The position numbers are program-made. A DNA stretch of 30,668 nucleotides from a virus (taxonomy: Duplodnaviria; Heunggongvirae; Uroviricota; Caudoviricetes), in the IMG/VR virus record IMGVR_UViG_3300045988_129107, one strand, 5' to 3'. Position 1 is the first letter of the stretch; the number at the start of each line of letters is the position of its first letter. Positions 6,001 to 9,000 of the stretch are shown here, piece by piece.

Positions 6001-9000
6001 AGCGTTGCGTGCCGCTTCTTCCACCATTTCCTCAAAACGACGCAATGCCTCCGGCATGACATCATCTTCCGTCATGGCACCGAGAAAATCATTCAGCGTA
6101 CCTGGTCTGGAACCTTCATAGACGGTAATGGTCCCGGCATGTGAAGGCGGAAAACCTTCAACCAGCAGGATGACGCTGTACTGGCCATACTCAACATCCA
6201 TGCTGTAACGCCCGACTTCATCCGGATTTTCAGAGGCCACCGTGTTCACCAGTACCGTGGTGCTGTTACGCTTTGCCTTCAGTTGAATAGTGCAGTTCTG
6301 TATTGGTTTTCCCGCACCATCTTTCAGCACACCTGAGATTTTTACTGCTGCCATATCCACTCCACAAAAAAGCCCGCCTGAACCGGCGGGCTGTCATAAC
6401 ACTGTGTTACCTGGCTAATCAGAATTTATAACCGACACCAACGATGAAACCGTCAGTGCGCCAGTCGCCACTGCCGGAACCTTCATAAGCAATATCAATG
6501 GCCACGGATTCGGTCGGGTTAAACTGCACGCCAGCCCCCCACGCCAGAGACGTGTTGCTGTGGCGACCGTCATCACTTCCGGTCAGCACATCGTGCGTTT
6601 TCCCCTTGTTATCAGTTACGCGGAGATAATCTCCGGAGAACGTCGAAACACGGCTGTAAGCCACACCCGCCATCGCATAAGCACTGAACCACTCATTCAC
6701 GCGCACAGATGGCCCCGCCATCATGCTGAACCAGCGGTTACGTACGGAATCTTCATGCCAGCGGGTATCGCTGTAACGGGTAAGCTGGCGATTCTTGTCT
6801 CCTGCATAGCTGAATGACGTCACCAGCCCCAGCGTGTCCGTAAATTCATAACGGTATTTCACGTTAACGCCCTTCAGGTCATCGTTGCCGGGCATATCAG
6901 TATGGGACTGAAGATACCCGGCGCTTAGTGTGGACTGATGCTCTGCTGCACTCGCTGGCGTACCAGCGGCGACCAGCCAGACTACTGCAGACAGAATAAC
7001 AGCACATAATTTACGCATAATTACCTCTCGCTTTTCTGCAATAAAAAAGGCGCCATTTCTGGCGCCCGTATTTGGGTTATAAAATTCAACTGATACTGAT
7101 ACCGGCTGTTGATTTCTTCATCACGACAACAAGAAGGTCGCTGATACTGGTCGTTGGCGTCCAGTTATTAGCACCATATGAAGAAACATTGAAAGTCAGG
7201 GTGACATGACCGTGTCCGGCAGGCATATCAATGACGGATGAAAATACCCTGCTGACATCCGTCGCGGGTTGCTGAAAGATTTCCTGTCCGTTCTTCAGTA
7301 CCTGCAGCTTACAGGTTGAATACCAGTATGACTGTTGGTTGTTGCTGTTGAAGTTTTCATGCTTACCACCGCGAAACAGAACGGGTGGGATTACTATCTG
7401 ACGGTCAAAAGCCTGGTCATCGTACACAGTGACCGTTATTGTACCGCTGGCATAACTGCCATTTCTCGGAAAGGCTTTTCCCACCGTTTTGACAATATCA
7501 CCTTCAATCTGGTTGGCAGACAGTTTTCCCAGAATCCGGCAGTTCTGGTTAATCGTGACATTATTGAGCGTCCCGGAGTTCGCATTCACGTTACCGCTGA
7601 TATCGGCATTTTTCGCCGTCAGCCGCCCGTCCGGTGTCAGGGAAAATACCGGCGGATTGCCGCCGCTGGTAATGGTGGGAGCCGTCAGATACTTCAGGAA
7701 CACTTCGTTCATGAATATCTGGTTGCCCTGCGCCACAAACATCGGCGTTTCATTCCCGTTTGCCGGGTCAATAAACGCGATACGGTTAGCGGCAACCAGG
7801 AACTGGCTCAGTTTGCCTTCCTCCGTATCCTCCATGCTGAGGCCAAGCCCCGCGACATAATGCCTGCCGTCTTCGGTCTGCTCAATTTTGACGCCCCACA
7901 TGGCATTCCATTTATCGTTGGCGTCTTTCCACTCTTTCGAAAACTCCTCCAGTTTGCTGGCGTTATCTTCCGTCAGCTCAAAGTTTTCCAGTAGCTCCTT
8001 GCCGAGATGCGTTTTATTGATCAACCCTTTATAAAAATTCAGATAACCTTCCGCATCATCGCTCGCCCGACCGACGGCCTCCACGAATGTCGATTTACCA
8101 ACGGTGTTCACGCTGCGGATATAAAAGTAATAATCATAACCCGGCTTAATATTGCTACTGGCGGCTATCCAGTACAGCGCAGTACCAAGATAACGCGCGC
8201 TGGTTTCAACCTGCCTGATATCAATAATCTGCTTTTCCGAGAACCAGAACTCAAACTGTACCGTCGGATCATAAACGGCAAGATGCGGCGTGGCGGTGAT
8301 CTGAAAATAGCCCGGCGTCAGCTCAATCCGCGACGGCGCTGACGGTGCGGCAATCCGGAACGATACCGACGCCGGATCGCCCTGCTGTCCCCACGCATTT
8401 ACCGCCCGGACTGTCAGCCTGTAGTTTCCCAGCGCCAGTTGCGTGAATCGGTATGTGGTTTCCGTCGTCCGGGCCGTGCTGACCAGCCGCTCACTGCCGT
8501 CATCCGCTGCCACGGTCAGGCGAAGCATAAAGCTCACACCCTTCACCACCTTCGGCGTATCCCAGCGCGCCAGCACCAGGTATTCCCCGCTGTCTGCGGT
8601 GACTTCTGCGGTCAGGTGCTGCACTGCTGGCGGCGTGACACCATTCACCGTGCCGCTCTGGTCACCGTCAAAGTGCGCCCCGTTATCCACGATGGCCTCT
8701 TTCTCCGGCACATGCTGCACGGCAGTGATGGCATACGTGCCGTCGTCGTTCTCACGGATACTCACGCAGCGGAACAGGCGCTGGCGCAGCGTCGGCAGCT
8801 TCAGCCCCCACACGCTGTACTCGGCAACGCCATCAGGAACCCGGCTCACTTTTACCTTCACGCCGTCGGTGACGGACTGGACCTCCACGCTGACCGGATT
8901 GCCACTTCCGTCAACCAGGCTTATCAGCGTGGTACCGGAGGATAGCAGCGTGATTTCACGGTCGAGCGTCAGCGTCCGGGTCTGGCTGTTCACCGCCAGC

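Follow-up and report, generated by a model that had tools for sequence, protein, structure and literature searches.

The tip attachment protein J (gpJ), or central tail fibre, of phage lambda (NP_040600; structures 8IYK, 8XCK and, with LamB, 8XCJ) is among the closest known relatives of the protein discussed here. In the gpJ–LamB structure, the four distal loops of each of three immunoglobulin (Ig)-like domains enter the trimeric porin; on binding, the domains splay, and the change travels up the fibre and opens the tail tip. We analysed the J gene of a 30,668-nucleotide (nt) stretch of Caudoviricetes DNA, the IMG/VR record IMGVR_UViG_3300045988_129107, which is referred to as a whole as the window. 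Judged by alignment, its product is a natural hybrid of the lambda type and the phage 21 type, and LamB, lambda's own receptor, is the porin that it would most probably use, an estimate we hold with some reserve.

Phage 21 is the key comparison. The Meyer laboratory reported that LamB is its native receptor and that, before mutating, the ancestor cannot infect a strain deleted for lamB; innovation during its evolution was followed by spotting on that strain. The J substitution I1025T (Gerbino 2024) alone adds the use of OmpC, and further changes in J add the use of OmpF. In contrast to the phage 21 allele, the chimeric A8 gpJ and the J protein of phi330 were found by experiment to use OmpC, and the A8 structures 9WCA and 9WCB were deposited under the title 'A8 gpJ 713 ... 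with OmpC G17 from E. coli EDL933'.

The J protein of the window has the same length as lambda J, 1132 residues, and is 89% identical to it in amino acids (aa) from end to end. It contains, in the order found in lambda, the Pfam series FNIII-A_GpJ (PF24801), Phage-tail_3 (PF13550), Ig_J (PF24421), Ig_J_second (PF24489), Phage_Tail_Tip (PF09327) and Ig_GpJ_C (PF12421), all well above the cut-offs. The series expected of a lambda-family tip attachment protein, consisting of the hub, two fibronectin type III (FNIII)/Ig domains, the helical shaft/fibre and the Ig-like receptor-binding domain (RBD), is therefore complete. The gene also follows M, L, K and I and precedes lom and stf, and this M-L-K-I-J-lom-stf order is that of lambda. 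The gene order was read from the open reading frames (ORFs) of the window, the RefSeq annotation of a 99.7%-identical prophage in E. coli APEC O1, and Pfam matches for Lom and for the N-terminus of Stf.

The similarity to lambda J is unevenly distributed along the protein. In a global alignment with lambda J (NC_001416, 15505-18903), 939 of the first 978 residues were identical (96.0%; 97.6% over residues 1-800 and 88.8% over residues 801-978), whereas residues 979-1132 agreed in 71 of 159 aligned columns (44.7%) and required three indels (Fisher's exact test, p = 7e-56). The blastn match to lambda DNA goes from position 12558 to 7552 and then ends, at most 2 nt from the edge of the segment that the original prediction had singled out. 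This is the main block of lambda homology in the window; a second match, at 6002-6546, is short (84%). It had been predicted that J follows lambda J through most of its 1132 residues and diverges only in the last ~150, the region with which lambda binds LamB. Both the likeness and the terminal difference were borne out, and direct comparison gave no C-terminus of high identity to lambda J. The word "only" was slightly too strong, since a moderate divergence (80-91% nt identity) is seen at residues ~811-870 too. The divergent stretch does contain the receptor-binding part of the protein, as PF12421 covers residues 1010-1132 and a structural model superposes on solved RBDs. The further step, that the phage probably recognises a different outer-membrane receptor, found no support: the RBD shares 99% identity with its counterpart in phage 21, a reported user of LamB, and because this nearly identical domain is reported to be LamB-dependent, divergence from lambda does not imply a change of receptor. 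What remains of the earlier interpretation is thus a non-lambda allele of the RBD and probably not a receptor change, though OmpC is a real possibility, as discussed below.

The DNA of the divergent segment (7086-7550) is 100% identical to the APEC O1 prophage, 98.7% identical to phages 4A7, Lambda_4C10, 1W and 3W, 97.4% identical to phage 21, and about 76% identical to many J genes of Shiga toxin (Stx) phages. At the protein level, the last 187 residues (946-1132) differ from phage 21 J (OL657228, CPT_21_21) at three positions, V946/T, T956/S and I1032/V, of which I1032/V alone falls within the RBD. With 172 of 173 residues identical over 960-1132 and 132 of 133 over 1000-1132, the domain belongs to the phage-21-type allele. 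The I1032/V substitution is conservative, and isoleucine is also found at this position in A8, phi330, BP-4795 and WGPS2.

Upstream of this segment the resemblance to phage 21 breaks down. Phage 21 J has 1160 aa, and its helical-shaft/fibre segment is diverged (56-79% nt identity to window residues ~811-930) and includes a 28-aa insert; neither the diverged segment nor the insert is present in the window, which is lambda-like there. Because this middle segment with its insert is missing, the J protein is a mosaic and not a plain 'phage 21 J'. Informative sites of the lambda and phage 21 types are intermixed from ~7704 to 7557, and all sites below 7557 are phage-21-like. The transition zone falls in a conserved stretch of the central straight fibre, the same stretch in which Brodel et al. 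2024 fused their engineered gpJ chimeras (lambda residue 964). In A8 gpJ, likewise, lambda gpJ gives way to a non-lambda C-terminus at about residue 964, but the junction was engineered in A8 and is natural in the window. On this comparison, J would have arisen by recombination where the central straight fibre ends in a conserved stretch, at ~residues 927-976, which would leave a lambda-like protein upstream and the last fibre layers with the Ig-like RBD of the phage 21 allele downstream.

The same mosaic is found elsewhere. The entire J gene aligns as one piece, at 96.0% nt identity, with those of the isolated phages 4A7, Lambda_4C10, 1W and 3W. Their genomes resemble lambda in all parts, in contrast to the window with its non-lambda head and tail-tube genes; no receptor data for the four phages were found in the literature. 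The RBD allele was present at 95% nt identity or more in 1,085 complete-genome records when 5,426 E. coli genomes were searched, so that about a fifth of complete E. coli genomes carry the phage-21-type allele. The allele, modular exchange at this junction and the receptor behaviour are all already known from published work. We therefore regard the gene as an ordinary modular exchange of RBDs among lambdoid prophages, not as a new specificity.

Pfam describes PF12421 as 'Tip attachment protein J, C-terminal receptor binding domain'. An AlphaFold2 model of residues 990-1132 (pLDDT 88.5, pTM 0.81) had the RBD fold of lambda gpJ, and Foldseek placed it at TM 0.89 to A8 gpJ in 9WCA and, with OmpC, in 9WCB, and at TM 0.82 to lambda gpJ in 8XCK and, with LamB, in 8XCJ. 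By analogy with the lambda and A8 structures, three RBD copies at the tail tip would engage a trimeric porin of the outer membrane with their distal loops, and this contact would cause the tail tip to open. The loops L1-L4 were tentatively assigned from the strand order in the DSSP string together with the published statement that four bottom loops bind the receptor. Compared with lambda, the putative L1 of the window is 4 residues shorter and the L4 region 1 residue shorter, while the L2 hairpin is longer, by 6 columns in the multiple alignment and by 5 residues in pairwise BLASTP. With 46% identity and indels in three of the assigned loops, the domain departs from the lambda type both in sequence and in the lengths of the distal loops that enter LamB.

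The relation to A8 and phi330 is closer and of a mixed kind. In the published AlphaFold3 model of phi330, the hairpin E953-S962 lies within the OmpC barrel and A1015-P1020 at the OmpC rim; these correspond to window residues 1043-1052 and 1105-1110, mapped with a +90 offset taken from the protein lengths (1132 vs 1042 aa). In both hairpins and in the C-terminal strand, the window does not differ from A8 and phi330. The allele as a whole is distinct, as the RBD of the window is 80-81% identical to theirs with 25 substitutions, while A8 and phi330 share 98%. Over residues 1000-1132, the window and A8 differ at 25 of 133 positions, with 3 differences in the assigned L1 and 6 around L3. Clusters of these differences fall in L1 (1004-1009), near L3 (1071-1079) and on the side that faces the fibre (1019-1031, 1059-1064, 1091-1094).

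We consider LamB the most probable porin, given that the RBD all but matches the one of phage 21, for which dependence on LamB is reported. The residue that corresponds to phage 21 I1025 is I997, mapped by the 28-aa offset between the two proteins, and isoleucine is kept there; among the J mutations of evolved phage 21, the mapping covered I1025T alone. The LamB dependence of the window J is accordingly a prediction by analogy, somewhat favoured by us, from experiments on a phage 21 stock that carries E1071K. This stock, the one typed in the Meyer laboratory, differs from the GenBank sequence by G18903A, which we computed to be E1071K, at the first residue of the first (L2) hairpin.

Several observations weigh against a LamB assignment. 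The site of E1071K is glutamate in the window (E1043), in GenBank phage 21 and in two representatives of phage-21-type clusters (P0001, P0002), so that the typed stock with lysine is unlike them all. The hairpins 1043-1052 and 1105-1110 are identical not only in A8 and phi330 but also in phage 21. In sequence, the RBD is far nearer to the OmpC binders than to lambda: its identity is 99% to phage 21, 90% to BP-4795 (untyped), 81% to A8, 80% to phi330 and 67% to WGPS2, the type of the OmpC-targeting chimera 1A2, and only 46% to lambda and 44% to 434. The phage 21 allele is thus the lone reported LamB binder in an OmpC-binding clade, distant from the LamB binder of lambda. A search of the available full texts for the LamB requirement of wild-type phage 21 returned, beside unrelated work, the papers of the Meyer laboratory and no independent record, and the genome announcement of phage 21 makes no statement on receptors. 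The LamB and OmpC proteins of natural B2/APEC-type hosts differ from the K-12 versions used in the phage 21 tests. Finally, the portal gene of the window is frameshifted, and this prophage copy may never make particles.

It is conceivable, though in our view doubtful, that OmpC, with or without LamB, is the receptor of the natural allele (E1043, I1032), in which case the predicted change of receptor would hold for the wild-type protein. The LamB-only behaviour of phage 21 would then be an effect of the laboratory variant E1071K or of the K-12 variant of OmpC, an explanation that we also hold to be unlikely. The case for OmpC draws on the relatives described above: A8 (81% identical) was solved with EDL933 OmpC and, in strains that lack both lamB and ompC and were given ompC back, many OmpC variants allow it to deliver DNA; phi330 (80% identical; 98% to A8) requires OmpC, as demonstrated with a Keio knockout and its complementation; and 1A2, read as having a WGPS2-type RBD (67% identical), uses EDL933 OmpC. 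Moreover, the window shares with phi330 both hairpins modelled in contact with OmpC, phage 21 acquires OmpC use by a single mutation, and the hairpin described as reaching into the OmpC barrel begins with the residue changed in E1071K. Yet the sole receptor-typed phage with this allele is LamB-dependent and did not lyse lamB deletion cells before mutating, and the 25 differences from A8 noted above include residues of the assigned L1 and around L3. Lambda geneticists used the host-range markers h434 and h80 and are not known to have used an h21 marker, which fits a receptor common to phage 21 and lambda. Recognition of a third outer-membrane protein, such as OmpF, FhuA or BamA, is highly improbable. 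Evolved descendants of phage 21 are able to use OmpF, and further receptors are known for lambdoid phages with different J alleles or tail types, but OmpF use in phage 21 took at least four J mutations, which are absent from the window J, and the typed members of this RBD clade natively use LamB or OmpC only.

With LamB as the preferred receptor, the window allele nevertheless appears poised close to OmpC use, because one substitution in phage 21 adds OmpC and because the window keeps the hairpins with which the sister allele contacts OmpC. We may speculate that the phage-21-type domain is a natural intermediate between the OmpC- and LamB-binding forms. The domain retains the OmpC-contacting hairpins of A8 and is reported to bind LamB, which it would do through an interface unrelated to that of lambda, and with about as little confidence we suggest that in its natural E1043 form it could accept, besides LamB, the OmpC variants of wild E. 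coli. In that event, the switch between LamB and OmpC is limited to 25 residues or fewer, chiefly ~1004-1009, 1071-1079 and the side that faces the fibre, and swaps of these residues could map it.

A different question is whether J is used at all. It may be a passenger in a decaying prophage that mediates no adsorption and is intact through recency of the decay or as recombination stock for other lambdoid phages; we give this a substantial minority weight. Compared with APEC O1, the portal gene has lost 71 nt between GAGCCGAC direct repeats, and its frame is shifted after residue 78. The near-identical copy in APEC O1 has a lesion of its own: its gene for the terminase small subunit carries the nonsense mutation Q67*, a change of CAG to TAG that corresponds to position 26609 of the window, and so the two prophages carry different inactivating lesions. 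In addition, 70 of the 81 mismatches between the two copies lie in the lambda-like tail-tip module, at 7810-12364, which takes in I, K, L and J apart from its C-terminal part; the interval 7086-7809 is free of mismatches. This clustering is a sign of patchy recombination or gene conversion and not of uniform divergence. Against a passenger role, J, I, K, L, M, lom and stf are all intact ORFs, and the portal deletion could be an assembly error; unless it is such an artefact, the prophage copy of the window is probably defective. In any case, a passenger role concerns the use of J and not its ligand, and is compatible with LamB as the receptor.

As a discovery, the present finding has little weight; it is useful as a caution. 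In the J family, overall similarity is no predictor of the receptor, as a 46%-identical pair shares LamB, whereas of an 80%-identical pair one member uses LamB and the other OmpC. The annotation rule 'divergent C-terminus, therefore different receptor' is consequently unsafe. The natural lambda/non-lambda junctions in J also confirm the fusion point used for retargeting lambda-based delivery vectors. Since this prophage family carries the genes of the cytolethal distending toxin type IV (CDT-IV), its host range is relevant to how cdt-IV spreads.

The published OmpC-targeting chimeras A8 (98% to the phi330 RBD) and 1A2 (WGPS2-type) correspond to two natural Stx-phage alleles. The gpJ of 1A2 had been considered as a phage-21-type allele, and this was rejected since a three-frame reading gave a WGPS2-type RBD; the sequence (supplement of Brodel et al. 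2024) is recoded DNA that was damaged by machine reading, and the RBD type was read by eye. A receptor-prediction preprint of 2026 was set aside as not applicable, as its GpJ results concern Drexlerviridae and it calls the lambda C-terminus non-homologous to those. The features of the window are collected in Table 1.

Table 1. Coordinates of the J gene, its parts and the neighbouring features in the window.
Feature	Position	Strand	Remarks
J (tip attachment protein / central tail fibre)	7086..10484	-	1132 aa, intact ORF; from the ORF list and translation
Lambda-like tail-tip module (M 3' end, L, K, I, first ~978 J codons)	7552..12558	-	blastn 91.9% identity
Divergent C-terminal segment (codons 979-1132 and stop codon)	7086..7550	-	Phage-21-like, not lambda-like
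Transition zone, lambda-like to phage-21-like (~residues 927-976)	7557..7704	-	From informative sites and sliding identity
RBD proper, Ig-like beta-sandwich (residues 1010-1132)	7089..7457	-	Pfam PF12421, E = 1.5e-37
Codon I997 (= phage 21 I1025)	7494..7496	-	Isoleucine kept in the window
Codon I1032	7389..7391	-	Sole RBD residue unlike GenBank phage 21 (V1060)
Codon E1043, GAA (= phage 21 E1071)	7356..7358	-	E in the window; K in the typed stock
L2 hairpin (putative distal loop; residues 1043-1052)	7329..7358	-	= phi330 E953-S962
L4 hairpin ANNWTP (putative distal loop; residues 1105-1110)	7155..7172	-	= phi330 A1015-P1020
Terminator-like GC hairpin and T run	7048..7067	-	19 nt past the J stop codon, before lom
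lom (Ail/Lom outer-membrane protein)	6419..7018	-	Pfam PF06316, E = 2e-121; directly downstream of J as in lambda
Side tail fibre gene	3979-6360	-	Intact 793-aa ORF; PF08400 at the N-terminus
cdtA, cdtB, cdtC (cytolethal distending toxin type IV)	70-2278	-	End of the prophage late region
DUF4055 portal gene, frameshifted	starts 24428; ORFs 24081-24428, 23093-24343	-	Deletion at ~24190
Terminase small subunit	25713-26807	-	364 aa, intact in the window; compared with 673-1767 of the APEC O1 copy

The window is a CDT-IV-carrying lambdoid prophage of E. coli, and the APEC O1 prophage likewise ends in cdtA, cdtB and cdtC; Toth et al. in 2009 are said to have described CDT-IV genes framed by lambdoid prophage genes. 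Essentially the tail-tip module alone is lambda-like. The head and tail-tube genes at 12867-30327 are not, and they include a P22-family major capsid protein, the DUF4055 portal and a 1077-aa tape measure protein, the head genes being P22-like. The boundary of the module is marked by a step in GC content, from ~44-46% to ~57-59%, at ~12500-13000. Across the side tail fibre stretch there is no indel between the window and APEC O1, for which RefSeq lists three fragments, two of them pseudogene and one an intact 'phage tail protein' coding sequence. The gene has an internal direct repeat, 83% identical (5383-5631 and 5572-5820), and the AT skew at 5001-6000 is extreme (-0.39).

Directly after J, the window differs from phage 21 in having lom, which phage 21 lacks at this place, and resembles it in having a terminator there, as annotated in phage 21. 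Scans of the window with Rfam and for tRNA genes gave no match, and no promoter-like site was seen in 6300-7700. Two antisense ORFs on the plus strand (7335-7994 and 7489-7860) lie wholly within J, with nothing supporting them, and were treated as spurious. F924 of J (codon 7713-7715) is retained in the lambda-like central straight fibre. In lambda J, F924 is the trigger of the Gifsy-1 abortive-infection nuclease HepS, and the J protein of the window, with the same residue, would be predicted from its sequence to activate HepS.

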